Origin: Pseudogymnoascus verrucosus
Taxonomy: Eukaryota
Reading direction: 5' to 3' (one strand)
NCBI GenBank assembly: GCA_001662655.1
Contig: KV460222.1
DNA: 64,000 nt
The stretch's first letter is position 1. Every line of letters begins with the position of its first letter. The notes under the pieces are model-generated. The model worked only from the letters and a program-made list of their open reading frames with translations. It was not told where the DNA came from and did not search any database. Positions 39,132 to 63,620 of the stretch are shown one piece after another. The translations under genes were made by a program, and so were the position numbers.

Positions 39132-39159
39132 ACATACAATAGTAGATATTCGCTAGTAG
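39132..39159 (-). pseudogene. 5S rRNA 3'-terminal fragment, RIP-like mutated
   Basis: acatacaatagtagatattcgctagtag versus acatacaacagtgggtattcgctggtgg: 5 differences, all C>T or G>A; T-run downstream. Confidence 0.75.
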
Positions 39160-41577: not shown

Positions 41578-42605
41578 TTATAACTTTGAGTGTGCTCCAG
41601 AACAAAGTCTTGCACCACCATCCACAGAGATATCTTCGCCGTTTCTGAAGGTTTGTGTTAGCTTTATAAAAGGAATGGCTCCTGGCGTTACTTACATATA
41701 ACTTCCTGCAGGGGAGGCCAAATATACCATCACACCAGCAATATCTTCTGGAATGCCCAATCTCTTCCTAGGATTTGAAGCATTTAATTCCTCCTCCCCT
41801 CCTAACTTCTCAATGAGACCAGCCGCAAGCTTACTCGGGAAGAAACCTGGTGCGACAACATTAGTAGTGATATTGCGAGGTCCGAGTTCGACCGCAAGAT
41901 TTCGTCCCAAATGCTAAATACTTAGTCAGTACTCGCATCCGCAGAAGGATACTTTGGATATACTTACATGTGCAGCAGCCTTGGAGACTGAATACATAAT
42001 CGTGCCATTCTCTCCAACATGAGGGACGTTGACACCAGCCGTCGAGCTGACAATGATAACTCTGCTAGGATCTCTCCGCGTCCCAGCAGCCTCTAACAAT
42101 GGCAAGGATTTCTGCACCAAAGTGAATACTCCTCGAACATTCAAATCTAATATCTTGACACTACTCGCATCAGGCGCATCCTCGAATTTTGAACCCCAGG
42201 TCGCTCCCGCATTCGGGACCAGAATGTCCAATTTCCCTTCAGTCTTCTTGATCTTCTCAACCAACGCAATAATTTCGTTCGTGTTCGCTACATTGGCAGC
42301 AATGCCGACCGCAGATCCACTGATCCCCGGAAGAGCGTTGAGTTTTGCAACGGCTTGATCGATGCCATGCTCACCCCCAGCCTTACGCGCGGTGATGATC
42401 ACCCGGGAAGCGCCAGCTTGGAGAAATGCTGTTGCAGTGTGAAGGCCAAGACCGCGGGAGCCTACCTTGAATGTCAGCTGGAAACTCGGCCTCCCTCACC
42501 TAAAATTAAAAGGGTACAGCCAATAAATGTAGACATACCACCAGTGATGAGCGCAACTTTACCGTCGAGGCGGAACAGTTTATTGAAATCCTGGAATTGG
42601 GACAT
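41578..42605 (-). CDS. short-chain dehydrogenase/reductase, C-terminal PTS1 (-SKL)
   Basis: LDGKVALITG|GSRGLG, NAG, YSVSK catalytic motif, APGFFPS, VDGG; 3 introns; ends AHSKL*. Confidence 0.92.
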
Positions 42606-42794
42606 GATAATGCTAGCTGTGTGCCTCTGGTGGTCCGTTTTGGAGTTGTGGGTGATGTATACTTAGAGTATGGCGGGCAAATCAACAGTCAATTGAAGGT
42701 TCTAGCACAGAGGAAATATCCAAGTTGGAAGAATTGTATTTCTGTGACCTTGAGGGTAAACGAACCCCGAAATACGCCCGATTACTTGGAGTTA

Positions 42795-42897
42795 CCTCGG
42801 AAATGATTAGGCGATGCCTACCGTATTATAGCCACGGCTCGACGCTTTCCGCGCCAAAACATAACCTTTGGACCTTTGGACCTTTGGCTAGCCGAGG
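42795..42897. promoter_or_regulatory. two CCGAGG (FarA/FarB-type) sites in the SDR/CoA-ligase divergent promoter
   Basis: cctcgg 42795-42800 and ccgagg 42892-42897. Confidence 0.5.
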
Positions 42898-43016
42898 CTG
42901 ACCAGCGCAAGGCTGTGGATATCTATGTGTACATAGTTGTCATGATAACCAAGTAACAATATTCTTTTGTACCTAATTTCTTTCCATTCGTGCACGTTAA
43001 TTTCATCCTCATCAAG

Positions 43017-44792
43017 ATGCCGTTCAAATCCCTCCACCCAGATCTAAGTATTCCAGAAACTGACGTCCTAACGTATCTCTTCCCTCCACTTGAGACGCCG
43101 AGCAAAGATCCACTATGGATCGATTCGAAAGACCCAAGCATCTCGCTATCGCCAGCAGAGCTCTTTCTTTGGGTTAGGCGCCTCGCCCTGGGCCTCGAGC
43201 GAACAGGTGCCAAAAAGGGAGAAGTTATTATGATTTACACACCAAACCACATATACGTGCCAGTCGCATATCTGGCGATCTTGAGCGCAGGCTATGCCTT
43301 CAGTGCCGCAAATCCCGCCTATACTTTGCGTGGTGAGAAAGGGGTCTTTCGAGAACATGGAGCATGAGCTAATAAGAACAAGAAATGATCCATCAAATTA
43401 AGAACACCGAAGCAAAGGTAATCCTTGCTCATCCAGATATGATGGAAACTGCGCTCGCGGCGGCCTCAAAATCCGGGGTCCCTTCTTGTCGCATCTTTCA
43501 GTTCTCAGATTCCTACTGCCCCCCACTTAAAGGTATTAAGGACTGGACAACTATGGCTGCTACCCCACAAGAAGGCGAGCGGTATATTTGGAGGAAGCTC
43601 ACGCACAAACAATCCAAAACCGTAGTTGCAACAATCAACTACTCGTCTGGAACCACTGGACCACCAAAGGGAGTTTGCGTCAGCCATCACAACTTGATTG
43701 CGAATGTCGAACAAACGATATACATGCGCTTTCAAGAAAAGCCGTACGCATACGCCAATCGCCCACAAGAGCGATGGATTGGCTTCCTCCCGCTTTATCA
43801 TGCATACGGCCAGCTTTACACAATACTCATGGCCGTGAAATTGAAGATTCCGGTCTACGTTATGAAACAATTCGTTTACCGCGATTTCCTGCAAGCCATC
43901 CAAGATTACAAGATCACAACCCTTCAAGTCGCACCACCGATTTTGGTCATGCTTGCGAAGAGAGCCGAGACAACCGAGTTTGATATCAGTAGTGTGAAGG
44001 ATGTGCTATGCGGTGCAGCGCCGCTGTCAAAAGAGTTGCAGAATGAGTGCATGGCGCGCTTCGGATTTAACGTCGTGCAAGGGTGGGGGATGACCGAGGT
44101 TACATGCGGTGCAATTCATGTGCCTGGGGGGAGGAGAGACGACACAGGAAGTGTGGGTGAGCTGGATCCGAATTGCGAGTGCAAATTGCTGGACGATGAC
44201 GGAAATGAGGTTGGTGTTGGAAAACCAGGAGAGATGTATATCCGGGGCCCAAACGTCTGCCTTGGTTACTGGAAAAACGATGTTGCCACAGAGGAATCAA
44301 TCAGTTCGGATAAGTGGTTAAGAACCGGTGACGTGGCGGTTAGGAATGAAGCTGGATCCTTTTGGATTGTGGATCGTAAGAAGGTTCATACTCGGAACAG
44401 CCCTTCTCTTTGGATACGTTTTGTTGACAACGACAATTTAGGAACTCATCAAGGTAAACGCATTACAAGTTGCTCCTGCTGAGCTTGAATCTGTTCTTCT
44501 TGAGCATGAGGATATCGCTGATGCTGCCGTGGTTGGTATCACCCTACATAGCGAAGAATGGCCAAGAGCATACGTTGTTATGCAAGAGCATGCGAAGGGC
44601 AAGGTAACACCTCACGATATCCAGCAATGGATTAAGCCTAGAGTAGCAAAGCACAAATGGCTTGTAGGAGGAGTAACATTTATCACAGATGTGCCCAAAC
44701 TTGCTAGCGGAAAAATTCAGAGGAAAGTTGTGAAAGATTGGGCAAAGGAAGATGCAAAGATATTAGAGACTAAAACCAAAGCAAGATTTTAG
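43017..44792 (+). CDS. 4-coumarate-CoA-ligase-like acyl-CoA synthetase
   Basis: YSSGTTGPPKG, QGWGMTE, WLRTGD, DRKK|ELIK, SGKIQR; 2 introns; ends KARF*. Confidence 0.93.
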
Positions 44793-46030
44793 AAGCACAT
44801 GAAAAATGAAATCATGTTATTTTTCGAAAGTAATTTCTTTACATTAAAGTTGGCCGCTCCGCCAAAGCAAGTAGCTGTAGTTAGGAATGCATCATCAGGT
44901 GATAAGAAGCCCAATTTTAATGATCAAGACCTCCATCCAAATAGTGTCTCAATCAATTGTGACTCGAATCTTCATCGTCGAAACCAACCTTCGCCTCTAT
45001 ATGGGCCGGGGTACGCAGTTAGCTCTTGCGGAAGCAGTCGGCGTGCACCAGCGGTTGTTCACCGCCACTTGACTATGGCAAATTTTACTATTGTTATAGC
45101 TATGTAAACTCATTCATGGAAGACCCTATACTATCTCAAGCCCCTGAGTGGCTTACTTCATACATCTAGCCTTGAAAACCGGACGTCAATTACTATAATT
45201 GAAGCTGTATCTGCAGCTTGGGAGGCATAAATATAGTAGAGAAAGCTTTGGCTATATAGACTTCTAAAGCTGAGTGGGAAGCCGAGAAACAGCTTTTGAT
45301 GGAAGCCCGAGCCGCTGGCATAGCTGTTGCTCAGTGGGCAACAGAAGCGAGGGTTGGTTCCGACAATGATAAATTCCAGCTCACAAATCTAAATAGCGCC
45401 CGTACGGAACACCAAATTCTGCCAATTTGCATTTATCCTCATCTTGGTGGGTGCGATAAGCAAGGATGTAGAACCCCTGCACTAAAAGCGTTGTCTTGTA
45501 GTTTCCGGGAATGCCAAGAATGCGGGGAATGTGGAGTACGGGTACGTTTTTCCGACCTTGAGGAACTACTTCCCCGCATTTTGTTAGAATAGTGTCGGAG
45601 GCAGCATAGCCTCGACAGTCGCAAAAAGAGGCCCTAGAACAGTTTTGGGATGCCTAGTAAGTGGATATTGTGATATTCCAGGTAAATATCGTTGGATAGC
45701 CGAGTTATGTGGTTCGACTTTGTTGAGGAGCTGAGGAAAAATAGCCGGGATTGGGTTCCTGAGGAAACTCAGAACCCGAATACACTCCGGGCCTGGATAT
45801 GCAAAAGCGAAGTGCAACTCGGAATTATTTAGACTAATTTGATCTAGCATTTGAGTGCCAACTAGTTGACACTATGGGACCCGAGGACCAGCCGAAACTG
45901 GTTCAAATGATCCGTTTCCTCTTGCGGTTCGATTTTCTCATTATCAAGATCGTGTACCTTCGTTCTTTAAGGAGAGAAGATGTCCCTTTGTTGTTTCTGG
46001 AAGTTGTCACAATCAAAGAAAAGAACAACG

Positions 46031-48238
46031 ATGTCTCCATCTGCTGTTCTAAGTAACATTGAACCTGAGAATGCTCCACCGGTCATCTTAAAAGGCATTC
46101 AGGATGACAAGAGTGCATTAGTTGTTGTTGATGACATCGACGGCGCGAAGACTCCATTAGAAGTTACAAATGGCGTAGATATCGCGACTAGTCAATCTGT
46201 TACACCAAATGGCATTAACGGCGCCAATGGGCATGCAGAGTTCTCGTACCCAGAATCAGAAACTCAGGGCCCATACCAGGTTGTGCGCCAGTATCACTCA
46301 AAGCCTTCAAAATTACGCGTCGCTGGTATTGGAGCTGGCGCATCGGGTATGTATTGATGAGGTCTCAAAGTTATCGTATGCCGCTAATAGATCTGCAGGA
46401 ATATGCCTGGCATACAAGATGGAGCAGATGCTCGAAGCTGGCTCATGGGAGTTGACGCTTTTTGAGAAGAACCCACACTACGGAGGAACCTGGTACGAGA
46501 ACACGTAGGTTAATAGAAGTCATAATATTTTCAGGAAACCACGTTAATGTCTTTGCAGATACCCCGGAGTTGCTTGCGATATTCCATCCCACCTTTACAC
46601 GTTCTCTTGGGACCCAAATCCAGATTGGAACCACTACTATGCGTATGGTCACGACATCCAGGCATACTTCGAAGGCTTCGTCAAACGACACGGGACGGAG
46701 AAATATATGCAGTTGAATACAAAGCTAGTTGAATCGGCATGGGATGACGAAGAAGGAATATGGAATATCACCCTTACAAACACCGTGACCGGCGAGATCA
46801 CGAAGGATTGGGCGCACGTTGTTATCAACGGGACCGGAATCTTGAATAACTGGAAGTGGCCAGAAATCGAAGGTCTTCATGACTTCACGGGTCCAATATT
46901 GCACTCGGCTAACTGGGATCATTCCGTGGATTTGGCGGGTAAGACTATCGGTGTTATCGGCACTGGCTCGTCATCTGTCCAAATCGTCCCACAATTACAA
47001 AAGAGAGCAAAGGAGGTTCAGGTGTTTATGAGGAGTCCAACGTGGATCAGTCCTCCATTCGGCGGTGGTAAGTCTCATCACCTAAGAGGGATTATAAAAG
47101 TTCGCTGACGATTAACGTTTCAGGTGTCTTGGAGTCGGAACTGAAGAAGGGTGCAGAGTCGTCGCCTGCTGAGAGACAGTACACATTTACTGAGGAGGAC
47201 AAGCGGAAATTTAAGGAAGATCCGAACCATCTGCTCCTCTTTAGGAAGAAGATTGAGGCCGAAATTAACTCATTGTTCGGCATGTACCAACAAGGATCCG
47301 AAGTCTCACAGAACTTCAGAGAGGTCATCACAGCCGAGATGAACAGACGACTAGGTGAGGGGCATGAAGAGCTGAAGGAGTTCATCATTCCTAAATGGTC
47401 CCCGGGATGCCGAAGAATCTCGCCTGGTGATGGATATCTCGAGGCTTTGGTTCAGGACAATGTTACGCCAGTGCTAAAAAATATCACGAAGGTCAACAAA
47501 GACGGGATTGTGACGGTAGATGGAAAACAGCACTATATGGACGTATTGGTCTGTGCAACGGGCTTCCAGGTTGCCTTCAAGCCTGCCTTCAAGATAATCA
47601 ATGGCCGAGGAATAAGCCTTGATAAGGACTGGGGCAGTGGAGTAAATCTTTACATGGGCCTGTCCGCTCCTCGTTTCCCCAACATGTATACCATTGTGGT
47701 ATGTATACTGCTGGACTAAAATTACCTTCCCCTGCTAACCCATGTATAGGGACCAGGCGCAACGTGGAGTAGTGGTACCTTATTGCCTTCCATCGAGACC
47801 TCTGTGGAGTATGCCGTTAAGATGATGCGAAAGATCCAGACGGATAAAATCAAGTCCATAGCCGTCAAGCAGGATGCCCTCGACGATATCTATAGCCACT
47901 TCGACGAGTTCCATAAGACCACCGTGTGGCAAGAAGAATGCCGAAGTTGGTTCAAGGACGGCAAGAGCAAAAACCGAATCTACCTATGGCCTGGCTCGGT
48001 ATGTTGAGGTCATCTCCTAGCGTCGTTGTGGCGACACTGCTAATATATCACATCACAGACCATCCACTTCCTCAAGACCATCAAGGATCCGCGTTTCGAG
48101 GATTACGATATCAAGTATCGCCATAAAAACCGATTCGCATTCCTGGGCAACGGAGAAGTCAAGGCGCACACGCAGCAAAGCGTAGAGGGATTGGCTCCAT
48201 ACATTCGTTCCAGCGACCACGATTGGTGTGTCGGGTAG
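46031..48238 (+). CDS. Baeyer-Villiger-type flavin monooxygenase
   Basis: GAGASG, GGTWYENTYPGVACDIP, FTGPILHSANWD (FxGxxxHxxxWD fingerprint), GTGSS, CATGF; multi-exon. Confidence 0.93.
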
Positions 48239-48763
48239 GCGGTTGTATTTATACACAACAACTCCTTATTCGCGTCAGCCCGTGCGTGTCTGTGTGTACA
48301 GAGTAGCCAATGATCCATCCCCATTTGTACATACATTTATAGGGATTTAATAGAGGAGTCCCTTCTATTGAATGAATTGCGTATAATTATTCAGTAAACA
48401 TATACAAGTTATGCGGATACCGAACTTTGCTTCCTCTAACCTAAAGCGTTTGTCACGACTGTTAGCGATTCGTTAGCTGAAGAATTTAAGACAGATTAGG
48501 GCTAATCAGAGCCTTAGCTTCCCCCAGAGTGCCCTAGATCTAGCCACTAACTACATACTAGCGAAATCGGCCCAGTCTAGACAGATGTTCCATGAATCTT
48601 CAAGAGCCCCTTACCACTTCCATCTGGCCGGGACCTAGCCTTGGTACTTGCATTACGCTGCCACTCGGCTCCCCGCTTCCCCGCTTCCCCAAGCTCAGGT
48701 CCCACCCATCCGCTTTGTTCTCCCCTTCCCTAACAATTTACACCACGTCGCGCCGTCTCGTCC

Positions 48764-48947
48764 CTTCCCTCCTCTGTGCTTCTTCTTCTGTCTCCGTCTC
48801 AACCTCCATTTTCGTGCAGCCTCGCCCCTTCCCTCCTCTGTGCTTCTTCTTCCGTCTCCGTCTCAACCTCCATTTTCGTGCAGCCTCCTTCCCTCCTCTG
48901 TGCTTCTTCTTCCGTCTCCGTCTCAACCTCCATTTTCGTGCAGCCTC
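48764..48947 (+). repeat. 60-bp pyrimidine-rich tandem repeat x3
   Basis: Units 48764-48823, 48828-48887, 48888-48947; units 2 and 3 identical, unit 1 differs at one base. Confidence 0.95.
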
Positions 48948-49053
48948 TCTCAATTACAGCCGTGCCACATTCGCTTTAGGCGCCTGAAATACATCTTCCG
49001 ACTTTCTGAGAAAGGACTCCTAACCCCACCGTGATTGGGAAGTGACCGAGGCA

Positions 49054-51897
49054 ATGGCTGACATGGCCTTCGACGGCACCTCTGCCATTCGGCCTGTTTC
49101 GCCGCCGCAGATGCAGCAACATCTGGAGCAACAAGCACAACAACCACAACAAGCACAACAGCAGCAAGAACCGCAACAACTACCGCTCCCACGGCCTCAT
49201 GGTCCACCCTCTCCACCGGAACCAGCCCCGACCCGGAAAACGGGTAAACAAGGTGCCCCTCGTCACAGAGCCTCTACTGCGTGCGTCTCGTGTAGGGACC
49301 GACGAATACGAGTGAGTTTCTTATCTCCTGGGCGTCAGTTTTGATTTAATATCGGGAATGTAGTGTGTTGTACTAGAAGGGGAGCGGGGGTGCACCCAGT
49401 GCCAGCGGAACAGCAACGAGTGCATTATAAAGTTCGACGATGAGAGAAGGAGGTTAGCTCAAACCCTATGAGATCAGTCAGAAAAGAAGGCTAATGAGCC
49501 AGTAGACCTGTGTCAAAAGCGTACACAACGTCTTTGACAGAGCGCATTGCTCTTTTGGAAGGTATGCTGAAGGAATACGGCGCAGAACCTCCTGCGGCAG
49601 ACCATCCACCAATTACGAAGGCCGAAGCCGCGCGTGGCCAACAAAGTTCTCCTGAAGCCAGCTCTCGTAAAAGCTCGAGACCAACCGCCGCGATACCTCA
49701 AAGCCAGACTCGGGGCAACGTTCGAAGTATGAGCCAAAATCGCACAACACCAAAGAGCCTTACCGATGAAGATGGTGAGGTCGGCGGCAACAGTCCGAAA
49801 TTTGATGTTATTGAGGGGAATTCACCCAAGCGAATTCAGGATCCGAGGAGGGAGAGTCTAGTGGATATGCTCGTCTCAACTCGTGGCCATATGAGCTTCG
49901 ACCAGCTTAGTGGATGTCTGCGATTCTTCGGTCCGACCACAAATTACCACATATATGCAGCGCATGAGTATGCTTTCATGGGCGTGGAGCCACCAGAACA
50001 AGCTCGTCGTACAGAGAGGATCATTCGATCCCTCCCAATGGAGACTCATGACTACCTTATGGGATTGTTCTGGGAATATTACAATACCGTTCTTCATATT
50101 GTGCACAAGGAAGCATTCACTGAGGACAGAGAAAACTCGGGAACGAAATATTACTCGGGGTTTCTACACATATGCATACTTGCTATAGGATATAGGTATG
50201 CAGATACCGAGAGAGAAGATATTAAGAAGATTACCGTCGGGCAGCGAGAATCTTTCCTACACCGAGAAGCAAAGTATATGCTAGATATCGAGCTGGAGCG
50301 ACCAGGAGGCCTCACGTCTGTTCAAGCGTTCCTGCTCTTAGGAGACTTAGAATGCGGAGTTGGAAGAGACAACACGGGGTGGATGTTTGCTGGTACGTAA
50401 CAAGCTTCGTGACTGTTCATATTTAGTAACTATTATTGATATATGTGATAGGTATGGCAAACAGGCTCTGTTTTGACATTGGATTACACCTTGATTGTGG
50501 GAACGAAGATCTTCCGGAGAAAGAGATACAAATTCGTAATATGACACTTTTCGCCTGTGTTATCTATGACAAGTAACCAACCATATTCTTGCTAGTCAAA
50601 ACATAGAATCTTACTGACGAGGGCTAGATATTGGGCACTATTCCTCGGGCGGCCGACTGGTATAAAAAGCTCAGATCTGGAAATGTATCGCCTGGCCAAC
50701 CAATTTTCGAGTCTTGGTAGGTGCAAACCTGCAGGACCGACGAAATCCCTAGAAACACAAATCTACGAACAACTCTTAGAGTTGATGGAAATATCTAGCA
50801 AAATCATCGAAATTGAAGACCCACGGGTCACTACAACGCAAGCAGTGAACGATAATGCGTACCTGCAAGTCATGAATCTCGATAGACAACTCCAAACTTG
50901 GTATCGACGGCTGCCAGAGAAACTCGCCTGGAAGCCTGCAAACATTCAAACAAACCCGTTCTCATTTTTCCTCTTACATCAGCAATACCATTGCAGTCTT
51001 ATCCTCCTTCATCGGCCATGGGCTAAGTACGAAGATCAAATCGACAGTGATAAGCGCGAAGACGATTTCTCAAAAGTCGACAATGATTACTTCTACATGT
51101 CCCGGTCTACCTGTACTCGTCAAGCCGTTCGTGTGGCTCAAGTTTTCTGGCACCACCGCCAATCTCTTGACATCCGAAAGTGCTTTGTCACTGGCCTCCA
51201 GCATGCTGGCACTGCCGCAACTGCTCTTGTTGCCGCTATAGCTGTAATGACAGATGTCGATGAGCGCAAGAAGAACATGAAATACCTCGAATGCCTGGCA
51301 ACGGCACTCCACGATATGGGCCCGACATATTATCCAGCCGATTCAATGTCTAATATCCTTCAGGCTGTGATGGTAGAGCTGAGTGAGTCGCGGGAGATTG
51401 GGTCTCCAATGGAATCGACTCTCAAATTAGGTGGTTCCCAGCGCCATGAGAGCCCAAGTCAGCAAGAAAATAGCGAACAGCGTGACTTCAAGAGGCGAGC
51501 TTCCTCAAAGTCAATGACACGACCAGAGATCTCCGAGTTCTCTCGCCCAATTCCTACTCAAGCGCCACCGTCTTTCAACCAACAAGCAAACAACAACAAT
51601 GCTATTGAAAATCATAACCGAGGCAACTCCTATAATATGATCACGCCGCAAAGCGATGGTAGTGTGCCGAGGCCATTGTCAATTGATGGCCAAATACAGA
51701 ATCGAGAAAGTATGACGCAGCAAATGGAGTACCCATTTGGCGTTTTTGGAATCGACCTTGACAGTATGCATGATGGTAGTATGTGGGATGGAGCATCGGG
51801 TCCACTGGCGTTATTTCAGGAAGACTTGACGGGTTTAGGCGATGAACAATGGAGTGGGGATAGGAACAATCAAGAGTTGGATTTCTTGGCACTTTGA
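49054..51897 (+). CDS. Zn(II)2Cys6 transcription factor with fungal-specific TF domain
   Basis: ACVSCRDRRIR|C..GCTQCQRNSNEC; middle homology region SVQAFLLLG..GWMFAG|MANRLCFDIGLH..|YWALFLGRP. Confidence 0.93.
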
Positions 51898-52325: not shown

Positions 52326-53855
52326 CTAGTAAGTCAAGTTAACCATAATAGTTTTCGGCTCAGTGAAGGCCCTTAGAGCATAGATTCCGGCCTCTCTGCC
52401 AACGCCACTCTGCTTGGTGCCACCAAACGGTGCGTTCTGGAACATCAAGCTCACGCAGTTCACACCAACCATACCGGAGTCAAGATCTGAGGCGACTCGC
52501 AGCGCTTTGTTGATGTCTTGGGTGAAGACACCGGCCATGAGACCGAATTGGGTGTCGTTTGAACGAGCGACAATCTCAGCCTCGTCCTTGAAGGTGTTGA
52601 CGACTGCAACAGGACCGAAGATCTCTTCGGTGATTATCTCCGAGGTCTCGCCGACGTTAGTGAAGACGGTTGGCTGGATGTAAAAACCCTGATTGCACTG
52701 TTAGCTATAGGCATCACATGTCACGAGGAAATGATTTGGACTAACCTTCTCGCCAATTCGCGCACCTCCGGTCAGCAGTTCTCCGGGCCCCTTCTGTCCG
52801 CGCTCGATGAATCCGGTAACACGCTCGAACTGACCCCTGTCGACCAAAGGACCGAGTAGCGTGCTCTCATCATCTGGGTCACCGGCAGTGTTTGCCTTTG
52901 CAGCCACGGCCTTCTTGTATCCCTCGATGAACTTGGGCGCAATTCCTTCCTGTACATAGACTCTGCTGGCGGCGAAGCACACCTGTCCAGTGTTGGCAGT
53001 AATCGCGTTGCTGCACCAGGTAATTGCATTCTCCAAGTCGCAATCGTCGAACACGACAGCTGGGCTCTTGCCGCCAAGCTCAAGCGTAACGCGCTTCAAG
53101 TTGCTCTTCGCAGCAGCTTCTTGGATCTTCTTTCCGGTTGCGATGGAGCCAGTGAAGGAAACCTTTCTGATCTTCATGTGGCTGGCAAGAATAGCACCAG
53201 TCGATCCGTCACCAGAGAGGACTTGAAATACTCCTGGTGGGAATCCGGCCTCTTTGATGAGAGGACCAAGAGCGAGGGCTGCAAACGGCGTCTTCTCTGA
53301 TGGCTTAAGAATGAAGCAATTTCCGGTCGCAAGTGCTGGGGCTGCCTTCAAGGCCGCAGTGCCCATTGGGCCGTTCCATGGGACGATACCGGCTGTGACT
53401 CCCAGAGGCTCGTTGCGTACGATCTTCATGAAGCCATCTTCTTGTGGGTAGGACTCACCGGCGAACTTATCGATCCAGCCGGCGTTGTATTTCCACGTCT
53501 GTGCCGCCAGGGCGGTCTCGAACTTTCCGAAGGAGCTGAATGGAGCGCCGAGGGTGATGCGAGTGAGCTCTGCAAGCACTGGGCCATGCTCGTTAATCAA
53601 ATCGCCAAATTTGGTGAGGATGGCGTGGCGTTCTGCGGCGGAGACTTTCTTCCATTCCGGGAATGCGGCCTCTGCTGCAGCGATTGCGGCGTCAACGTCC
53701 TCGGCGCCCGCGACAGGGACATCGTTGGCGACTAGGGAATCGTCTTTGGGGTTGTAGACTTCGAGTTTTACGGAGCCTTTGGAGTCGACATATTCGTTGT
53801 TGATAAAGAGCTGCTTAGGCAGGTTGTCCTTGCTGAAGTTGAATGTGAAGCTCAT
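52326..53855 (-). CDS. aldehyde dehydrogenase
   Basis: IVPWN, FTGS, LELGGKSP, GQVC, EEIFGPV, PFGGTKQSGVGRE; one intron at about 52690-52745. Confidence 0.95.
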
Positions 53856-54647
53856 CTTGTTAGAAGCGGAATAGACAAGGATATGATAGTTGGACGGATT
53901 TGAAGTTACTTGAGTTAAATTCAGAACAGCGCGGTCAGGAGGGTTGTTGCACGATAAATCTCAAGGAAGCGTCCTGGGGCACTGTAGTACTCTACAGAGA
54001 TATCGCGGTGATACGGGGTATGTATCTATTGTGCTGTACCTTACTGAGATTCACGGGCATGGGGGATACATCCACAGAAAAGTACCCCGCATATACTGGC
54101 ACGGCCGCACGAGTACATCTGCCGCAGAACCGTACCATCCGATTGATTGGCTCTACTGGATCCGCCATTCCAGACCAGCTTGGATGGTGCAGTTGTTAGC
54201 GTCACCACTAGCTTGGGAATAATGGAGACAGTGGGGGTGTGCGGGGGGAACCGAGCCAGGGTTAGGTTGCGGGGTAGTCGACCTGGGAAGATCTTTTCCT
54301 GGACCCTGCGCGGGGAACAACTATCAGAGGAAAGGATAGCCTGCCCTACGCGCCTGAGTTATCCGAAATGCTTTTACCGGACTCTTCGGAAGTGTACAGG
54401 ATATGAATGAAGTTATGAATGGAGTTATGAATGGAGTTACGCCTAGTGGTCTTGGGAACGCCGCGGCTCTATGTGGTAGTCTCTACACTGTATTTACGTA
54501 GTAGGTACGGAAGAGAATCATCGTTTTCTTCCTTCATATCTCAAAATAAGTCCGTCACTTATTTCTCACCATTCAAGCCACGAGTCATCCATCTATCAGA
54601 ACCTACTCTCCACCATCTTACTCACGTCAATATACTACGTCGTCAAG

Positions 54648-55734
54648 ATGTCCACCATGAAGGCAGCACAATGGGATCCGGTAGGCCTTAAAAAATCCAT
54701 TTATCCAAGGTCATAGCATTCTAACAATCGGCAAAAAGACCCAGAAGAAGATCGTCGTCAACGAGATCCCGATTCCAGAGCCAGGGCCAAATCAATTCCT
54801 AGTCAAGACCACCTCGGCCTCCCTCTGCCACAGCGATATAATGGCAATAGATACTCCCGGCCGTGAAAAGCCCATCACTCTCGGTCATGAAGGAGCGGGC
54901 AGGATTGCAAAAATCCATCCCAGCGCGGAAGGCAAGGGCTTTAAGGAAGGCGACGACATAGGTTTCCTATATATCGTCGGCTGCTGTTTCGAATGCGACG
55001 GATGCCTAGTCCACAACTTACATTGCGAGACCGGAAAACAGCTGCTGCAGGGCTTCACAACAGACGGCTTCTTCGCCGAATATGCAGTCGTCGACTACCA
55101 GAATGCTGTCATTCTCCCAACGGGCTTAGATCCAAGGAAAGCCTCTCCAATCTTCTGCGCAGGTATCACTGCTTTCCACTCCGTCGATTCGTCCGAACTG
55201 AAGGAGGGCGACTGGTTCGGCGTAGTTGGTTGTGGTGGCCTCGGCCAGCTCGCAACTCAATACGCGAAGGCCATGGGTGCCAAAGTCGTTGGTATCGACA
55301 TCAACGATGAAGTCCTCGCCACATGCAAGTCACAAGGCGCTGACGCGATTTTCAACTCTCGCACAAACCCCAACTGGGCAGAAGATGTCCGGACCCTCAC
55401 TAACGGTGGAGTCAAGTCCGTAGCCGTGTATAGCAACGCCCAAGTGGCCTACGCCACTGCTCCCTCGATTATCAAACTCGGTGGCATTCTGATGGTTATC
55501 GGCATTGCGCACAAGCCGATCGAGGTGTCAACTATGGACTTGACTATTGGAAAGTACCGTATCAAGGCGGAGAGTACGAGCATACCGCAGCGAATGAACA
55601 AGGCGATTGAGTTCACCGCGAAGTATAATATCACCCCGGAGGTGCAGACTTTTGATAAGCTGGACGATCTGGCGGGGATGGTGGAGCTAATGAAGGCGGG
55701 GAAATTCACAAAGCGTATGGTTATTGTTTTCTAG
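54648..55734 (+). CDS. Zn-dependent medium-chain alcohol dehydrogenase
   Basis: LCHSD, GHEGAG, CFECDGC..C structural Zn site, GCGGLG; one 5' intron. Confidence 0.93.
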
Positions 55735-56229: not shown

Positions 56230-58140
56230 CTAGATCCGTCCTCGTCTAAGGAACTTGTTTGGAATATCCACATGCTTCGCCCTCAAATACTCGCAAACGT
56301 TCTTTCCTAGACCATCCACCGTGCTGCTGGCGTTATACGATCTATCTAGATGATCGTGGAGCAAGAAATGCACAGCTCTTAAACCTGGAATCTCGAAACG
56401 ATCAATCTCTTTGCCATTGTATTCTGCTCCAAGTAGTTCTTTCATTTTCTCCACGGTTAGCATGCTTCTGATCCATTCCCACTCATCGTCGTTCTCAACA
56501 AAGAGACCGACGTTGGCATCGGAGGCCTTGTCGCCGGAGCGACCGAGCACGCGCCAGCCGATCGGGCAGCGAGTCGTTGGGCCGAAGGAATTTAGCGGGA
56601 CGGGATTCTTAGTCTCATAGCTCCATTGCCTGGTCTCGTAGAGCTGCATGGCAGTCGATGGCGGGATGTCGATGGCCTTATTCTCCCAGGTCAGGTTAAC
56701 CTTATGGCTGACCTCGGACTGTGGTAGGAGCGCAACCCAGTACTCGTAGAACTCCTTTCCGGCAGACTGGCGGATGTCGTTCCCAATAGTGGCACCCGGT
56801 GCGGATTGCAAGAAGTTCTCGAGGCAATATCGATTGAAACCTGGGACATCAAGAGTGTCCTTGACCATAAGAGAGCGATCTTTGCTCTGTGCAAATATAC
56901 GAAAGTCAACGGTTGCACGGTTTTGGTCGCGTGGATCCTCTGCAGCAGTGCCTATTTGTTGGAACTCGAGGCAGGAGAACTTGCCCACGTTATCGCCCAT
57001 CGACTTGCGGATCTGTCTCTCGGTCCATTCACACTTGTCATCAATATCGAGACCGACAAAATAAAAGTGGAATTCAGCTTGATAGCCCCCGACGGCCGTG
57101 AGACCAACCTTAGTGGTTGTTGGTGGCGGCTTGCCCTTAACACCTGTGATGCGTACGAGGTCGTCAGCTTCTTGGACCATGTCGATGCCCTCGAGAACGG
57201 CAACAACGTCAGAACCGTAGTACTGTGGGCCTTGAATCTCATAGAGCAGTTGAGAAACAACGGTGCCGACGTTGATAGCACCGCCAGTTTCTGGCTCTTT
57301 CTCGAGAGTGCAGGAGCCGTCGGGAAAGACCGCGGCAATGGGGAAGCCAAGGTTCTCGCAGCCGTCAAATAACCTCTTAAAACCAGAATAGTAGCCTCCA
57401 GCTACATAAGAGGAGCACTCGATGAGGTGACCAGCGATCAGTGCACCCGCAATCTCATCAAAGTTTGTGTTCCTATCCCACCCGTGCCACCACATAGCAG
57501 CTCCAATTGTAGGTGCAGCATCTGCTACGCGGCCACAGATGACAATGTCAGCGCCATTCTTGAAAGCCTCCGAAATACCGGCGCCGCCAAGGTAACATCT
57601 ATGATATGATCAGTCGCAGTTTTTTGTCAAGTCTGTCACACGTGCCGAAACTTACTGTGCAGCTACGGGGTCGAAACCCCAATCCTCCAGATTCCCGCCG
57701 AAGCAGATATTCTCAAATTTGTGTCCCTCCTTTAAGAGTTTGTTGACAACATCTGAGACCTCATCGCCCTGCACCCAGGCGACCTTTAGGTTAAGTCCCT
57801 GCTTCTTGACCTCCTGCACGACAGTTTTCGCCAGCAACTCGGTGTCACTGCTGCCTGCGTTCACAGCCAACTTGATGCCTTTCTTCTCGAGATAAGGCAA
57901 CGCAGGTGAGACATTTTCCATGAAGGACGGGTCGTAAAGGCCTTGTCTGTCGGTATCGCTAACTGAGTTGGCGACAACGTTGGCTTTGGCAGCACCGTGC
58001 CATGACATGGTACATTCACTCATCCAGTCGCCGACAATGACATCGACATCACATTTTGCGAGGTCAAGGATGGCCCGTTGGCGGTCAGTAAAGCCGCCAG
58101 AGGCGCCAGCGATGCGGATTGCTCTCTTCGGGGTAAACAT
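56230..58140 (-). CDS. acyclic terpene utilization AtuA family protein (DUF1446)
   Basis: IRIAGASGGFTDR, GDWMSE, YLGGAGI, ICGRVADA, GHLIEC, QLLYEIQGP, GRSGDK; one intron. Confidence 0.9.
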
Positions 58141-58887
58141 TATGTTGGCAGTAGTAGAGGTAGGAAGGAAAGGTTAAAGTGACATGGAGTAGAATAGGGA
58201 TTGTCGAACCTTTTCACCCAAATATATCAACTCATCGGGAGGCGATACCACCAGCGATAAATCTCAAAATGGTCACAGGAACTCAATGAAAAGCGGAGAT
58301 GTCGGGATCAATGTGATGCCGTGTTATGCGGGCTTGGTGGGGTGCGTTCATATGTAATTCACTTGGTAGATTTTGCGATGGGATAATCATGACACTCGAA
58401 GCTTCCCCGCATGGGCAGCGGGGCTTAGCTTGGACGGAAAATAACATCCGCCGCTAGCACATCGAAAATGGGGTTATGCGGTTGATTTAGTGGGCTGTAG
58501 GCAGAAAAATGAAAGCTAGCAATCCTCACTGAAAACATGTCACAGGAACTACACTCCGCCGGCGTAGAGGCTGAGAGAAGCGACGTTCCGCACGCTGTCA
58601 TGAATCCCCTTGACCAAACAGCGACCCGCGGTGGGTGGCCGTAGGCCAGCGAGTTGTTTCCATCAGAATTGACCTCTCTTGGAGTTCATAGCTTGGGAAC
58701 ATGGTCGCACCCGATTTTAGGATGTACAGTTTGAGGATGAGATTTCTGTATTTTCTACGAAATGGTACGGAGTGATAGAGCCCACGATTGCAGGCCGTAC
58801 TCTCCTTCCAAGTAACTAGTCCCTATGGCGTAGCTTCATTTACTCATGCATATTCATCCTCCCATAGATTGGATTAGTCGATATCTA

Positions 58888-60021
58888 TCAAGAAAGAATG
58901 AACTCAATTGCCTTCTGCAATTTTTGATGGAAATCTTTCGTGATAGGCTCAAGATGCTTCGAAGGGAACGCCCAGAACCAATGCGGGTAACCCTCAAACT
59001 CGTCATATCTGTTCGGGACCCTAGTTTTAGAATTCGTCAGCAAAGTAATCACATTGAAGTTTCTTAGCATCAACATACCCAGCATTGTCCAACGCCTTCT
59101 TGAATAGCCGACCATCATCTCTCAAGGTATCCATTCCTGCAGTAACAATATAGGTTTTTGGCAAATCTTTGATTCTCTTGTGCAATAGCGGTGACGTGTA
59201 ATGATCTGTTAGAGGAGGGTCATAAGCGTCTATAATTTTATGTTAGCAATTGATCTCTGTGATCAATATAGGTAAGTGCTTACCGAAGAATGCTCTCATG
59301 GCTGAATTTGTGTTTATGGTATACTCTGCATTCTCCTCATAACTAATGAACTCCGATTTAAACTCCGCTGGGCAAGCGTCTGGGTGAACGGTGACTGGAA
59401 CAAGGGCCACAATACCCTTCACAGTCCCTCCCAATCCCGCATCGATCAGATTAAGAGCAAGTCCCAGAGCAAGACCACCACCTGCTGAGCCTCCAATAGT
59501 GAATACCTGACCAGCGGTTGTATTCAAGTAACCTGTATTCTCAATAACCCAGTGATATGCAGCGACACAATCTTCTAGTGCTATAGGGTACTTATGCTTC
59601 GGGGCGAGGCGGTAGTCCACAGACACGAGGACGGTTCCTGTATCTATAGCGATTGATCTGCAGAACCCATCCTCCCCGTCCAGATCTCCAAACACCCAAC
59701 CGCCGCCGTGCATAAAAATACCTGCTGGTTTTCCCCCAGTGTAATTCGGTGGGGTGTAAATTCGCACTGTCACATCTGGAGATATCGCCTTATCTTCAGT
59801 CTTCACAGATATATCGGGAGCTGGGAAGGTTAGCTTGGAGCCCAGAACACCTGAAAACTGAGTCCAGCCATTGAGGAGGTCGTTAAATGTTGGGCCATGG
59901 AGAGTTTGCCTGCCTCCAAGCTCTTTTTCGAACTGATAACATGAATAAGTATGAAGTTCTCGACGCTCATGCTCACACGTACCTCCAACCAAGCCGGCGC
60001 AAATGAATTCTCTCTAGACAT
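58888..60021 (-). CDS. HSL-family (Abhydrolase_3) esterase/lactonase
   Basis: HGGGW, VDYRLAPKH, GGSAGG nucleophile, D.LRDD, GYPH; 2 introns. Confidence 0.92.
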
Positions 60022-60028
60022 TTTCGTT

Positions 60029-60158
60029 CCGAGGTTAAAATGCTGCAGTGCGGGTAAGATACGAATTTTAGCAATCCATCAGGTTGTGTGGTGCCATTTA
60101 ATAATCCGTCCACAATTTGGTGATATTCGTCGGGTCTTATTTTAGTGTACAACCTCGG
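60029..60158. promoter_or_regulatory. two CCGAGG (FarA/FarB-type) sites in the esterase/ACAD divergent promoter
   Basis: ccgagg 60029-60034 and cctcgg 60153-60158. Confidence 0.5.
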
Positions 60159-60339
60159 CTTAAGGATCAATTTAGTGGCGGATAAAGGTTGCCGGTCGCT
60201 AGATCTTAGTCTGGAGGAACAGTGCCTTCAAGGTACTCAATCCATTCATAGGTACCGAGATTCCTTCGCATAATCACTATTTATCACAACATTCCATTCT
60301 TGATCTGCAAATTCTACACAGTTACTAAACTATACAAAA

Positions 60340-61703
60340 ATGGACGGGCCAGCATTCCAACGCATCCCACCATGGGTTAAGGCCAAACTTACACCAAAGG
60401 CAATTACGACAATCCAGGAAGTCTACGACTGGGTTGAAAATGAGTGTATTCCCGCAGAGGAGGTCATGGAGGCGGCACTGAAGGAGCACAGATGGACAAC
60501 TCCGCCGATCATGAAAGAATTACGAAAGAAGGCGAAGGCTCGGGGTCTTTTCAATTTGTTTCTTCCGAACCATTTCGAGGAGAGTCCCGGACTCACCAAC
60601 CTAGAATATTCCTGCTGTGCTGAGATTATGGGAAGATGTTATTGGGCCGCACAAGTATGTTTGTCAGATCGCAATACAGGCGAGGAGCTCCGCTAATCCA
60701 TGGCCAGACAATGAACTGCCATGCGCCAGATACTGGTAACATTGAGTTATTAGCAAAGTACTGCAACAAGGAGCAGAAGGAGAAGTGGCTCAAACCCTTA
60801 CTAGAAGGCGATGTCATGTCGTCTTATTCCATGACCGAGCCTGATGTCGCCTCCTCCGACGCAACCCAGATCTCCTGCTCCATCCGCCGCGAGGGCAACG
60901 AGTACGTGATCAACGGGCGCAAGCTATTCGGCAACTCGCTCGACAACCCCGAGATGAAGACCATCATCCTCATGGGCTGCTCTGACCCGACCAACCCGTC
61001 CAAATGGAACCGCCACTCTATGGTCCTTGTCCCCGCCAACTCCAAGGGCCTGACCCAAGTCCGAAATCTCACTATCATGGGCGAGGATCATGCCCCCAAT
61101 GGTCACGGCCAGTTCGTCTACGACAATGTTCGCATCCCAGTCGAGAACATTATTCTCGGCGAGGGCCGTGCGTTCGAGATTGCGCAGGGCCGCCTCGGCC
61201 CCGGCCGCATCCACCACTGCATGCGCCTCATCGGACAGTGTGAGCGAGCCTACGAGCTAGCGCTGATCCGCTGCATCGACCCGAGCAAGATGCCACGCGG
61301 GAAGCTCATCGGGCAGTTCGACTCGAACATCGAGAAGATTGCGCAGATGCGCCTCGAGATCGACTCCATGCGGCTGGTCGTCTTGAATGCTGCCGACACC
61401 ATGGATCTCCTCGGCAACAAGGCGGGTAAGTATGCGATCGCACAGAGCAAGATCTTGGTGCCCATAGCGGCGGCGAAGATCATCGACGAGTGTATGCAGT
61501 TGTATGGCGGTGCAGGGTTGACGCAGCTTACCCCCTTGCCATCGATGTGGACGTACGCAAGGTTTGTGAGATTAGCAGATGGGCCCGATGCGGCGCATAG
61601 ACATCAGGTGGGCAGAGATGAGATGAAGACTGCGGCAGGTTTTAGGGATAGGCATGCTAAGTACAAAGAGGGTTCGAAAGTCCTCGCGAAGAAGTGGCTG
61701 TGA
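60340..61703 (+). CDS. acyl-CoA dehydrogenase (ACAD10/11-like)
   Basis: Exons 60340-60654 and 60708-61703; NCHAPDTGNIE, MTEPDVASSDA, QGRLGPGRIHHCMR, RLADGPD. Confidence 0.93.
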
Positions 61704-62318
61704 GGGATAGAATCATTTTGTATGCGAGAGAGGCATTTTCCTATTGTATATCGATTACAAGGGCTTAATATATTAGGATTACATATTCAGAAGCGGAATT
61801 GTTAGTTCTAACTGTTTATTTAAAAAGTGAAGTTATAGAGGTGTGACGCGACTTTAACACCAATTAACTTTAACCCTTAATTTCAGATGGTTATAGAAGC
61901 TTTGTCTGAGCTACTCTACTGCCCATTGTATAGAAAATGGCATTAGCTTACTTATAATGTCATCTGATTGTTTGCATATTCTTTAACTGCTCGATCTTGG
62001 GGGGGTTTAGATACTATATGTTGCGCTTGTATCGTATAGTAGGGAGAAAATATTATTTTGATACTTCTTGATATTACTATTATACGCAATCTAGGTAACT
62101 ATTATATAAGCTATTATCCTAACAAACGGACCCGATTTCCACTAGAGAAGATCATCTTAATGACTTGTCTAGAGCCAGCGGCGTGGCGCCTGTGAGCTGT
62201 TTTCTATTTCGTCAGAATGCCCCTGAATTGAGGAGACTAACGAGGTGAGCGGTTCGCGGGAACAAGCGGAGCCTTTAGGAAACAGGAACATTTCCAACAT
62301 TTTATTCCATCGTCTATC

Positions 62319-63620
62319 TCATGGAATAATCTTAGCCTTTCTAAACCTATCAAACGTCATCCACCAAGACCCCTCCTCATCCAGTTCCTCCTTCATGTCC
62401 CCCCAAGCTTCATGCGCCCTTCTCATATCTAGCTGTCGATCAAAATCAAACATGCTCATGATGAAATGTTGAAAGCCCCCAGAGGATCTCTCATTCCCCA
62501 CGCGGCCCGTTTGCAGTCCATACTTCATCTCCAGCTCTTTCCACCGCACCATATGCTGCTCGACGTATCGTCCTGGTTGTGGTCCCGAGCCTCCAGGTGG
62601 CGGCGCGGTGCCTTTGAGACCAAAGTACTCGCATATCACGGGCCACTTGTGGGACCACGACGAAGGTGTGGCACTGTCAGCGATGTTGAAGCGCCCCCCC
62701 GCACTAACTTCCGGGTGCAAGCTCGCGTGGACGGCAAACTTGGCGACACTGTCTTGATTGCATTCGTTGCTCAGAATGGCCCAGCTCTTCTCAGTGCCGG
62801 GGAAGGCGCACTCGGCGCCCTTGCCTTCGACGGCGACGTACAGGGCGAGATAGGTGGCCAGGGTCTGCGCGAGACAGTAGATGTTGTTGTTGGGTACGAA
62901 GCCGATGATGTTGTCGGGGATGACTTCGCACCAGTTCCAGGCTTTGCCCGCCGAGAGCTTCTTTAGCGTGTCGATCTGGGCATAGTAGAACATCTGCGAG
63001 ACGTAGGGCTCGGGAATTGGGGGGAGGTCTTCGTGGAGGGGTAGGGAGTCACCGAAGGGGAACTTGTCGAGAAGGTGGACGCCGTATGTCTTGGTGCCCG
63101 TGGCCATGACGACGAATTGGAGGTTCGGGGAGAGGTTCTGGACGGCGGTTATGGCGCGCGTGAGCAGTTGGATGTTGATTTCGACCTCTTTGGCTGGGTC
63201 TTGGTCCATGATGTATGCTGCAAGAGACGGTCAGCTTTTGTCGCAGAGGTTGGGAAAGGAAGCTCGCTTCGCACCGAAGAAGTACACGTGTGTCACCTTC
63301 TCAATCCCCTTAATTCCCCTCTTCATGTCTTGCTCCAACCCGTCCTGGCCCTTAGTGGTGAGCAGATCTAGTCCACTCACGACCTGCAGGATGTCGGAGT
63401 CGGGCCATTGAGCGACTTCGCGGCTCAGCGGCCTGTTGGTCAGCGCTGTGACGGACTGGAAAGGGCTTGTATCAGGATATCCGTTAATTATAGCATTTGT
63501 GATGGCCCATCCAGTAATTCCACTCGCACCTGGACGAGGAGAGTTAGTCACGTGGACAGAACTGGAGGCGAGCGAGTGACGGGTTCACGCACCAAAAACC
63601 AAGGCATGATTCTGTGCCAT
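62319..63620 (-). CDS. PRISE-like (progesterone 5-beta-reductase/iridoid synthase-like) Rossmann reductase
   Basis: MAQNHALVF|GASGITGWA, THVYFF, TGTKTYG, FYYAQ, PDNIIGFVP; 2 introns. Confidence 0.85.

Follow-up and report, generated by a model that had tools for sequence, protein, structure and literature searches.

Ten contiguous genes at positions 41578 to 63620 of a 64,000-nucleotide stretch of contig KV460222.1 from the fungus Pseudogymnoascus verrucosus (GenBank assembly GCA_001662655.1; the whole stretch is hereafter called the window) appear to constitute a catabolic cluster, conserved among Pezizomycotina, for a lipophilic ketone or enone, probably a branched, isoprenoid-like one, under the control of the cluster's own Zn2Cys6 regulator. 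We assign this reading a probability of roughly 0.55. From the families to which the ten proteins belong, we infer that the cluster is catabolic in direction, the order of its steps, and the class of its substrate; that its genes are co-regulated is a further supposition.

Pfam profiles were run against all 91 stop-to-stop open reading frames (ORFs) of at least 80 amino acids from 41 kb onward and against 106 ORFs of at least 95 amino acids between 1 and 41 kb (197 ORFs together), and spliced, intron-aware gene models were built by script, with the outer coordinates taken over from an earlier note on this DNA. The window holds fungal DNA whose introns are short. From 41 kb onward, the families detected are, in order, adh_short, AMP-binding with AMP-binding_C, FMO-like, Fungal_trans, Aldedh, ADH_N with ADH_zinc_N, AtuA with AtuA_ferredoxin, Abhydrolase_3, Acyl-CoA_dh, and PRISE, and these correspond to genes 1 to 10 (Table 1). 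The scan and the spliced models agree with the earlier note on the ten families, their order, their strands, and the three divergent pairs, which are the short-chain dehydrogenase/reductase (SDR) with the CoA ligase, the aldehyde dehydrogenase (ALDH) with the zinc-dependent alcohol dehydrogenase (Zn-ADH), and the esterase with the acyl-CoA dehydrogenase (ACAD). All ten genes are intact, the nine enzyme genes having complete reading frames in the spliced models, and all nine enzymes carry what we take to be their usual catalytic motifs. The scan likewise bears out the absence of polyketide synthases, nonribosomal peptide synthetases, and terpene synthases, none of whose families occur among the 197 ORFs; no backbone gene of a fungal secondary-metabolite cluster (one of these or a dimethylallyl tryptophan synthase) was detected within the 64-kb window.

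Table 1. Genes of the cluster (first ten rows) and recognition-type genes in the left part of the window (last row); aa, amino acids; E, expectation value
Feature	Position	Strand	Product	Pfam family
SDR	41578..42605	-	281 aa, 3 introns	adh_short, E 1.2e-25
4-Coumarate-CoA ligase (4CL)/luciferase-type acyl-CoA ligase	43017..44792	+	555 aa	AMP-binding, E 3.1e-61; AMP-binding_C
Baeyer-Villiger monooxygenase (BVMO), type I	45980..48238	+	5 introns	FMO-like
Zn2Cys6 transcription factor	49054..51897 (about)	+	exon structure partly resolved	Fungal_trans, E 9.8e-11
NAD(P) ALDH	52326..53855	-	490 aa, 1 intron	Aldedh, E 5.5e-110 and 1.6e-42 (two exons)
Zn-ADH	54648..55734	+	340 aa, 1 intron	ADH_N; ADH_zinc_N
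AtuA-family protein (DUF1446 with fused ferredoxin-like domain)	56230..58140	-	617 aa	AtuA (PF07287), E 1.6e-115; AtuA_ferredoxin (PF23544), E 1.8e-12
Hormone-sensitive-lipase-type esterase or lactonase	58888..60021	-	323 aa, 3 introns	Abhydrolase_3, E 1.7e-34
Stand-alone ACAD10/11-LvaC-type enzyme	60340..61703	+	436 aa, no kinase domain	Acyl-CoA_dh
PRISE-family reductase (activated C=C, enones)	62319..63620	-	393 aa	PRISE, E 1.6e-120 and 8.3e-34
NB-ARC/NACHT-TPR (NLR-like), second STAND ATPase with DUF7779, 2EXR, and BTB genes	1908-4130, 34191-36782, 26878-28617, 21122-21787	+, -, -, -		Pfam

The grouping of these genes recurs in other fungi. Three anchor proteins, the BVMO, AtuA, and PRISE, which span gene 3 to gene 10, were followed through the best 120 homologues of each in a tally made by hand, in which three of the ten genes are tracked, the order of locus tags is taken to reflect position, and equal contig size serves as a proxy for the same contig. 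Among these homologues, the anchors have neighboring or nearby locus tags in six other assemblies, within spans of 8, 11, 2, 5, 13, and 1 tag numbers, respectively: Coleophoma cylindrospora (BVMO BP6252_05796, AtuA BP6252_05801, PRISE BP6252_05804), Polytolypa hystricis (BVMO AJ80_01931, AtuA AJ80_01940, PRISE AJ80_01942), Myotisia sp. PD_48 (AtuA FQN57_003686, PRISE FQN57_003688), Meristemomyces frigidus (AtuA LTR62_004039, PRISE LTR62_004044), a second M. frigidus assembly (BVMO LTR85_002903, PRISE LTR85_002890), and Stylonectria norvegica (BVMO G7046_g863, PRISE G7046_g864), the third anchor of each of the last four not being among the matches listed. The spacing of AtuA and PRISE in Coleophoma is three tags, equal to that in the window, and that of the BVMO and AtuA is five, as against four in the window. 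Two or three anchors also fall on equal-sized contigs in 11 more named assemblies among the matches listed (Patellaria, with three anchors, Acidomyces [78 kb], Hyaloscypha variabilis, Penicillium herquei, Niveomyces, Sodiomyces alkalinus, Tothia, Xylariales PMI_506, Aspergillus aurantiobrunneus, A. egyptiacus [89 kb], and A. insuetus), and the same coincidence of size is seen for another 11 contigs of at least 10.7 kb. In Halenospora varia, gene model P0198 (802 amino acids) merges the 3' part of the CoA ligase with the BVMO, its alignment with the window covering 44066-44738 and 46205-48232; this is probably an annotation merge, not a real fusion, and because one model spans both genes, their adjacency and orientation are kept in this species. 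Since the anchor genes co-localize in other genomes, we regard the block as a conserved cluster, so that the reading of the earlier note passes the conservation check that the note had set for it, and not as a chance juxtaposition: it is conserved in Leotiomycetes, Eurotiomycetes, and Dothideomycetes and, for the BVMO and PRISE, in Sordariomycetes.

The ACAD is not the generic beta-oxidation dehydrogenase for a branched acid that had been proposed; its HCMR motif, its catalytic Asp, and its PDB matches place it with ACAD10, ACAD11, and LvaC. The main exon matches M. abscessus 4hr3 (3.5e-88), human ACAD11 2wbi (6.5e-86), and mouse ACAD11 8v3u (1.5e-82), whereas the best match to ordinary ACADs in the PDB is about 1e-25. 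In the alignment, GRLGPGRIHHCMR and LADGPD of the fungal enzyme are identical to mouse and human ACAD11, and the enzyme keeps both Arg residues, HCMR, and the Asp, including the positions of the upstream Arg (R626) and the catalytic Asp (D753). In ACAD10/11, the 4-phospho group is held by R626, H634, and R637 (of the HCMR motif), with D753 acting as the catalytic base; only ACAD10/11 and Pseudomonas putida LvaC conserve these active-site residues as a set, and the reaction converts 4-phosphoacyl-CoA to 2-enoyl-CoA (PMC12440821), while the subgroup is phylogenetically distinct and its stand-alone bacterial orthologues pair with separate kinases (PMC11342911). Judged by these residues, the fungal protein belongs to the subgroup that removes phosphate from 4-phosphoacyl-CoA, and because it has the active site of the HCMR subgroup, it is predicted to signal gamma-hydroxy or gamma-oxo acyl-CoA intermediates. 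The N-terminal APH-type kinase that mammalian ACAD10 and ACAD11 carry on the same chain is missing from the 436-residue fungal enzyme, and there is no space for one, because the ACAD ATG (60340) lies only 318 bp from the ATG of the divergent esterase; with no kinase domain on its chain, the enzyme therefore resembles the stand-alone bacterial form. No kinase family was detected by Pfam in any of the 197 window ORFs. An Atlas search with the ACAD exon returned generic bacterial ACAD clusters only.

With VE02_08388 of Pseudogymnoascus sp. 03VT05, the AtuA exon shares 99% identity. Plain phmmer found no match for it in the PDB, and the Atlas search gave no usable match; a structural relative surfaced only through fold and profile searches. 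The AlphaFold (AF2) model, built from a 45-sequence alignment (predicted local distance difference test, 93.9; predicted template modeling [TM] score, 0.92), had one strong Foldseek match in the PDB, 9evf ("Citramalate lyase - ADP - pyruvate complex"), of which chain A matches at an E of 7.7e-20 and a TM score of 0.74 and chain B, of 105 residues, corresponds to the ferredoxin-like domain at the C terminus (probability, 0.99; TM score, 0.71). The alignment profile likewise recovered cmlA of 9erq/9evf (E, 2e-07), with the stretch GAxxVxxGRxxD aligned, and the depositors name this chain both "Acyclic terpene utilization AtuA family protein" and "Citramalate lyase, subunit A (cmlA)." In Raoultella planticola, Cml (cmlAB) converts citramalate directly to pyruvate and acetate (bioRxiv 10.64898/2026.01.16.699985). 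A DUF1446 gene 3' of the methylaspartase gene had been noted in an earlier paper, and no function for DUF1446 is given in the literature passages on it that were examined.

By predicted fold and by profile, the fungal AtuA is thus related to CmlAB, the citramalate lyase that enterobacteria make from two subunits, and shares with it the fold of both parts and, going by the name the depositors use, the Pfam family. It differs in sequence (about 15% identity), in being one fused chain instead of two subunits, and in gene context, since the methylaspartate-pathway genes that accompany citramalate lyase are missing: no methylaspartase, mutase, or mesaconase family was found by Pfam among the 197 ORFs. 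The AtuA family thus includes an adenine-nucleotide-binding C-C lyase that takes acetate off a tertiary alcohol carbon. Because the substrate from which CmlAB releases acetate is a tertiary hydroxy acid, we propose by analogy that the fungal enzyme may act on an acid, or its CoA ester, that is beta-branched and carries a beta-hydroxy group, giving acetate and a ketone. We also weighed whether AtuA could supply the kinase activity that the ACAD needs; gene context lends this no support, as none of the 33 clustered neighbor ACADs at bacterial AtuA loci has HCMR, and we rejected it except as part of the more speculative reading given below.

That comparison covered 80 bacterial and archaeal AtuA loci, in which genes up to 7 kb away were clustered and the representatives named by Pfam. 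The neighbors of AtuA include acyl-CoA carboxylase subunits (49 of the 80 loci), a canonical ACAD (26/80), enoyl-CoA hydratase (24/80), a gene resembling MDMPI_N/DinB (15/80), and an AMP-binding ligase (10/80 by family clustering and 15/80 by tblastn). In tblastn searches of the same loci, the window ACAD matches 33 of 80, at 22 to 27% identity and at most 93 bits, the BVMO matches 2, and the esterase and PRISE match none (E, 1e-10). The Pseudomonas atuABCDEFGH cluster (PMC4097962) resembles the fungal one in having AtuA with a fused ferredoxin-like domain and genes for an SDR, an acyl-CoA ligase, and an ACAD-family protein; the geranyl-CoA carboxylase AtuC/AtuF and the hydratase AtuE, which stand beside AtuA there, are absent from the window, the fungal ACAD comes from another subgroup, and the BVMO, esterase, and PRISE are additional. 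Pfam detects no Carboxyl_trans, biotin carboxylase, or enoyl-CoA hydratase family in the 197 ORFs, and because it has neither carboxylase nor hydratase, the fungal cluster is not an Atu cluster. The earlier linking of the protein to acyclic terpene utilization holds for the family, as assigned by Pfam, and fails for the gene context; its solved relative is a citramalate lyase.

The two AtuA loci that also hold a BVMO contain further genes of the fungal set. An Aeromicrobium metagenome-assembled genome (L079:3995-14487) has a BVMO, DUF541, Abhydrolase_3, Zn-ADH, TetR, MDMPI_N, AtuA, an ACAD, and a carboxyltransferase, and we take it as an anecdotal bacterial echo of the fungal gene set; Rhodococcus sp. 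Leaf278 (L011:4791-19614) has a carboxylase, an enoyl-CoA hydratase, MDMPI_N, AtuA, an ACAD, a ligase, an SDR, and a BVMO. In 15 of the 80 loci, which are actinobacterial (e.g., L002:8757-9983 and L011:9162-9980), the gene immediately upstream of AtuA is the mycothiol-maleylpyruvate-isomerase-N/DinB-like one, with a median gap of 264 bp.

The remaining enzymes are assigned with various degrees of specificity. Type I BVMOs are recognized by two GxGxxG motifs, FxGxxxHxxxW[P/D], and [A/G]GxWxxxx[F/Y]P[G/M]xxxD, and the gene model carries GAGASG, GTGSSS, GGTWYENTYPGVACD, and FTGPILHSANWD; its 33 PDB matches include steroid, cyclohexanone, and phenylacetone monooxygenases and OTEMO. A second ATG, at 46031, is possibly the true start of this gene, and the alignment with the Hyaloscypha orthologue spans 46208-48235. 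The reductase is covered by the PRISE profile (PF22917) from 5 to 394 and has GTKTYG and MFYYAQ, which contain the signature Lys of GTKxY and Tyr of FYY; its PDB matches are progesterone 5-beta-reductases and iridoid synthases (5e-15 to 7.5e-09), and its exon shares 99% identity with VE04_01322 of Pseudogymnoascus sp. 24MN13, the 393 residues of which align to 63620-62322. The esterase (116 esterase matches in the PDB) has an HGGG oxyanion hole, GGSAGG, and C-terminal Asp and His motifs, leaving the triad intact, and known lactone hydrolases belong to the same hormone-sensitive-lipase family.

The CoA ligase (introns 43333-43382 and 44384-44441) has SSGTTGPPKG, and its top PDB matches, at about 1e-39 to 1e-41, are 4-coumarate-CoA ligases and luciferases. 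Both the ALDH, with ELGGKSP and GQVCFAASR and generic NCBIfam ALDH matches only, all below cut-off, and the Zn-ADH, with its zinc ligand motifs and an AdhP-like NCBIfam match (E, 1.1e-57) also below cut-off, look like generic types. The SDR model has TGGSRGLG and YSVSK, and its closest PDB match is RhlG (E, 6.8e-20). Its C terminus (41578-41586) is -SKL, the canonical ending of type 1 peroxisomal targeting signals and the only one among the nine enzymes; in contrast, the last residues of the ligase are -ARF and those of the ACAD are -KWL.

These assignments can be arranged into a pathway. PRISE would saturate an activated C=C bond, the BVMO would place an oxygen beside the carbonyl, and the hormone-sensitive-lipase-type hydrolase would open the resulting ester or lactone, upon which the Zn-ADH and the ALDH would take the freed alcohol to an acid and the 4CL-type ligase would form its CoA ester. 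From a tertiary beta-hydroxy (beta-branched) intermediate, AtuA would cleave acetate or an acetyl group, yielding a new ketone that could return to the BVMO, while the SDR and the ACAD10/11-type enzyme would handle gamma-oxo and gamma-hydroxy acyl-CoA, as in the catabolism of levulinate and 4-hydroxy acids, with the kinase encoded elsewhere; the presumed end point is beta-oxidation intermediates. Three blocks to beta-oxidation would thereby be bypassed, namely, a keto group (by PRISE, BVMO, esterase, ADH, and ALDH), a beta-branch (by AtuA), and a gamma-oxygen (by SDR and ACAD). All three co-occur in oxygenated isoprenoids, such as ring-opened p-menthane ketones and isoprenoid methyl ketones, which is not in itself evidence for a terpenoid; a terpenoid-like substrate is plausible, and it is possibly a plant terpenoid.

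Several observations weigh against a conserved catabolic pathway under its own regulator. Pfam finds no kinase, enoyl-CoA hydratase, thiolase, or transporter among the 91 ORFs on the cluster side, and, with the first three missing, the earlier description of the pathway as complete was overstated. Because the window ends 380 bases past PRISE, the right border is out of view; on the left, the cluster is bordered by a 3.3-kb stretch (38200-41500; 45 to 48% GC) with no ORF above 88 amino acids. Anchors lie on different contigs in 23 of the 40 named assemblies with two anchors listed, which may reflect paralogues, fragmented assemblies, or real loss. The best NCBIfam match of the BVMO is PtlE, far below cut-off, its orthologues carry the source name "stcW," its relatives also serve biosynthesis, and BVMO and PRISE-like genes are known from biosynthetic clusters as well. 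The sole fungal AtuA studied, VdAtuA3 of Verticillium dahliae, is reported to be mitochondrial and to bind staurosporine; by the same account, its deletion leaves growth on citronellol unaffected and the atu homologues of this fungus are not clustered (PMC13399572). In the promoters (seven regions totaling 4351 bp), no CGG/CCG dyad is shared by more than three of the seven regions. Enrichment is mild for SYGGRG, chosen a priori as what we take to be the CreA-type consensus, with 24 sites versus 16.7 +/- 3.9 in shuffled sequences, a count reached by 46 of the 1000 shuffles.

A single motif stands out more clearly: GCGGGG, which was picked post hoc and fits the CreA consensus, occurs 10 times in the promoters (4/7 regions) versus 2.0 +/- 1.4 times after shuffling, and none of the 1000 shuffles reaches 10. 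We read these sites as a weak hint of carbon-catabolite control of the cluster. Candidate CreA-type sites include two inverted ATGCGGGGAA sites about 50 bp apart in the BVMO promoter (45522-45577) and similar ones at 54310 (between ALDH and ADH) and 58404 (AtuA). Upstream of the transcription factor, three tandem 64-bp units (94% matches) at 48757-48947, about 100 bp from its ATG, lie in its promoter or 5' leader, and two overlapping GCGGGGA sites (48670 and 48678) stand just 5' of this repeat. An intron near 49300-49390 interrupts the zinc cluster of the factor (CxxCx6C followed by x8CxxCx6C), and for that reason a regular-expression search of the window for the unsplit Zn2Cys6 motif found none.

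The same genes admit other readings. We think it unlikely, if well worth weighing, that they encode a carboxylase-free route for acyclic isoprenoids in place of any ring opening, in which the ADH and ALDH would make an acid from a terpene alcohol or aldehyde, PRISE would reduce the enal, and the ligase would activate the product, after which the AtuA-type lyase would release acetate and a methyl ketone and the BVMO and esterase would turn the latter into acetate and a shorter alcohol, the cycle then repeating. Such a route draws on the homology of AtuA to a lyase that takes acetate off a tertiary alcohol carbon, on the isoprenoid-type acyl-CoA enzymes (carboxylase, enoyl-CoA hydratase, and ACAD) beside bacterial AtuA, and on the fact that the BVMO, esterase, ADH, and ALDH suit methyl ketones as well as rings, with no lactone-specific feature found. 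On this last account, the terms "cyclic" and "ring-opening" of the earlier note were not borne out, as the BVMO and esterase would suit acyclic methyl ketones equally; the sequence gives no distinction between acyclic and cyclic substrates, a point that tells in neither direction. The acyclic route is countered by the absence from the window of a hydratase that could form the tertiary alcohol, by an ACAD that is not of the AtuD type and implies gamma-oxygenated intermediates, and by the V. dahliae AtuA3 mutant, which reportedly grows normally on citronellol. More speculative still, and to our minds improbable, is that the cluster represents a carboxylase-free fungal mineralization of oxygenated isoprenoids, so far undescribed, in which the AtuA/CmlA-type enzyme, with its adenine-nucleotide site, would act either as the lyase that feeds the BVMO or to phosphorylate substrates for the ACAD; if so, one conserved module in at least three classes of Pezizomycotina would unite the chemistry of a BVMO, that of a new family of lyases, and that of 4-phosphoacyl-CoA.

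We give rather low odds to the detoxification or use of a gamma-lactone, a 4-hydroxy-alkenal (4-hydroxynonenal is linked to the 4-hydroxy-acid route), or an oxylipin-type compound, for which PRISE would reduce the enal or enone, the ADH and ALDH would produce a 4-hydroxy acid or the esterase would open the gamma-lactone, and the ligase and ACAD would lead to beta-oxidation. Five of the nine enzymes fit the activities required, and the ACAD subgroup is dedicated to 4-hydroxyacyl-CoA catabolism in mammals and P. putida; this scheme, however, gives no role to two of its co-localizing anchors out of three, the BVMO and AtuA, and no kinase is present. That the genes do the tailoring for a biosynthetic cluster with its backbone synthase outside the 64 kb is, in our judgment, somewhat less probable again. 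The window does stop so soon after PRISE that such a gene could follow, fungal biosynthetic clusters do include BVMO and PRISE-like (SirQ-like) genes (the source names include "sirQ" as well as "stcW"), and there is an O-methyltransferase at 9.4 to 10.6 kb. But no backbone gene is detected in the 64 kb, the cluster has no P450 and no transporter, the stretch lacking long ORFs bounds it on the left, the anchors are compact in the six assemblies listed above, and the ALDH, Zn-ADH, CoA ligase, ACAD10/11-type enzyme, and lyase-type AtuA make up a degradative set. As for unrelated oxidoreductase genes brought together by chance, all of these families are large in fungi and the anchors are often on different contigs (see above), yet close locus tags in six assemblies from three or four classes, the clustered AtuA proteins ranking among the best-scoring AtuA matches (71 to 75% identity), and the AtuA-PRISE spacing common to Coleophoma and the window already contradict this idea, which we consider scarcely credible. 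A role in steroid side-chain cleavage (progesterone to testololactone) was also entertained and was dropped because five genes (ligase, ACAD, AtuA, ADH, and ALDH) would be left unexplained.

Taken as a catabolic cluster for a ketone or enone, the locus can be compared with described systems. Bacterial routes for monocyclic ketones include Acinetobacter chnABCDE and the carveol/dihydrocarvone branch of limonene degradation in Rhodococcus erythropolis DCL14, with which it shares the classes of SDR, type I BVMO, alpha/beta-hydrolase lactone hydrolase, Zn-ADH, ALDH, and CoA ligase; in DCL14, an enone (carvone) reductase precedes the BVMO, as PRISE would in the fungal cluster. The SDR, BVMO, lactone hydrolase, ADH, and ALDH classes of a chn-type pathway are all present, at the family level only, and the Pfam families thus uphold both the catabolic type of the gene set and its family-level likeness to bacterial routes through a BVMO, a lactone hydrolase, an ADH, and an ALDH. 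The fungal cluster departs from those routes in its eukaryotic make-up (introns, a Zn2Cys6 regulator), in its use of PRISE as the enone reductase, and in the addition of AtuA and the ACAD10/11-type enzyme. LvaD of the P. putida lva operon is an SDR. With that operon and with mammalian ACAD10/11 (PMC12440821, PMC11342911), the cluster shares HCMR, the upstream Arg, and the catalytic Asp, with a CoA ligase and an SDR alongside; of the set formed by LvaA and LvaB with LvaC, LvaD, and LvaE, it has the LvaC-like enzyme, the SDR, and the ligase, but not the LvaA/APH-type kinase or LvaB, and six more of its genes have no lva counterpart.

The only fungal precedent that we found is the monoterpene-induced cluster of Grosmannia clavigera, described as having about 30 genes and two BVMOs (PMC8120277, PMC3680317), which is likewise fungal, terpenoid linked, and BVMO bearing. 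None of the 360 matches listed (the best 120 for each of the BVMO, AtuA, and PRISE) is named Grosmannia. A 2021 review mentions, as fungal enzymes of terpenoid or ketone breakdown, those of G. clavigera only, and literature searches (supplements aside) yielded no published description of the present gene set. BVMO-centered catabolic clusters are of a known kind, and in this one the ACAD10/11-type and AtuA/CmlA parts are unusual and recently deorphanized.

Very few fungal genes for the breakdown of terpenoids or ketones are known, and the hosts of the cluster are soil, rock-inhabiting, plant-associated, and keratin-associated ascomycetes, which would indicate a common but unmapped route of carbon turnover or of detoxification of plant volatiles. 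The cluster would also place two recently deorphanized enzyme types, a kinase-less 4-phosphoacyl-CoA eliminase and the AtuA/CmlA lyase family, in a fungal context, where both are directly testable; the role of AtuA in terpene use has been an open question since the atu cluster was first described. For biocatalysis, the locus would offer a matched set of an enone reductase, a BVMO, and an esterase.

The left 40 kb of the window is of a different character. It contains, by Pfam, the NLR-like, STAND, 2EXR, and BTB genes listed in Table 1, gene types typical of fungal non-self recognition regions. The O-methyltransferase mentioned above (dimerization domain with Methyltransf_2; 9446-10565, + strand) lies 31 kb from the cluster, and no link to the cluster was seen. 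Several long ORFs with no Pfam match (up to 563 amino acids, at 13319-15007 on the - strand) occupy 4243-7667 and 11268-20289, and these stretches have a strong, alternating GC skew and a GC content of 53 to 58%.

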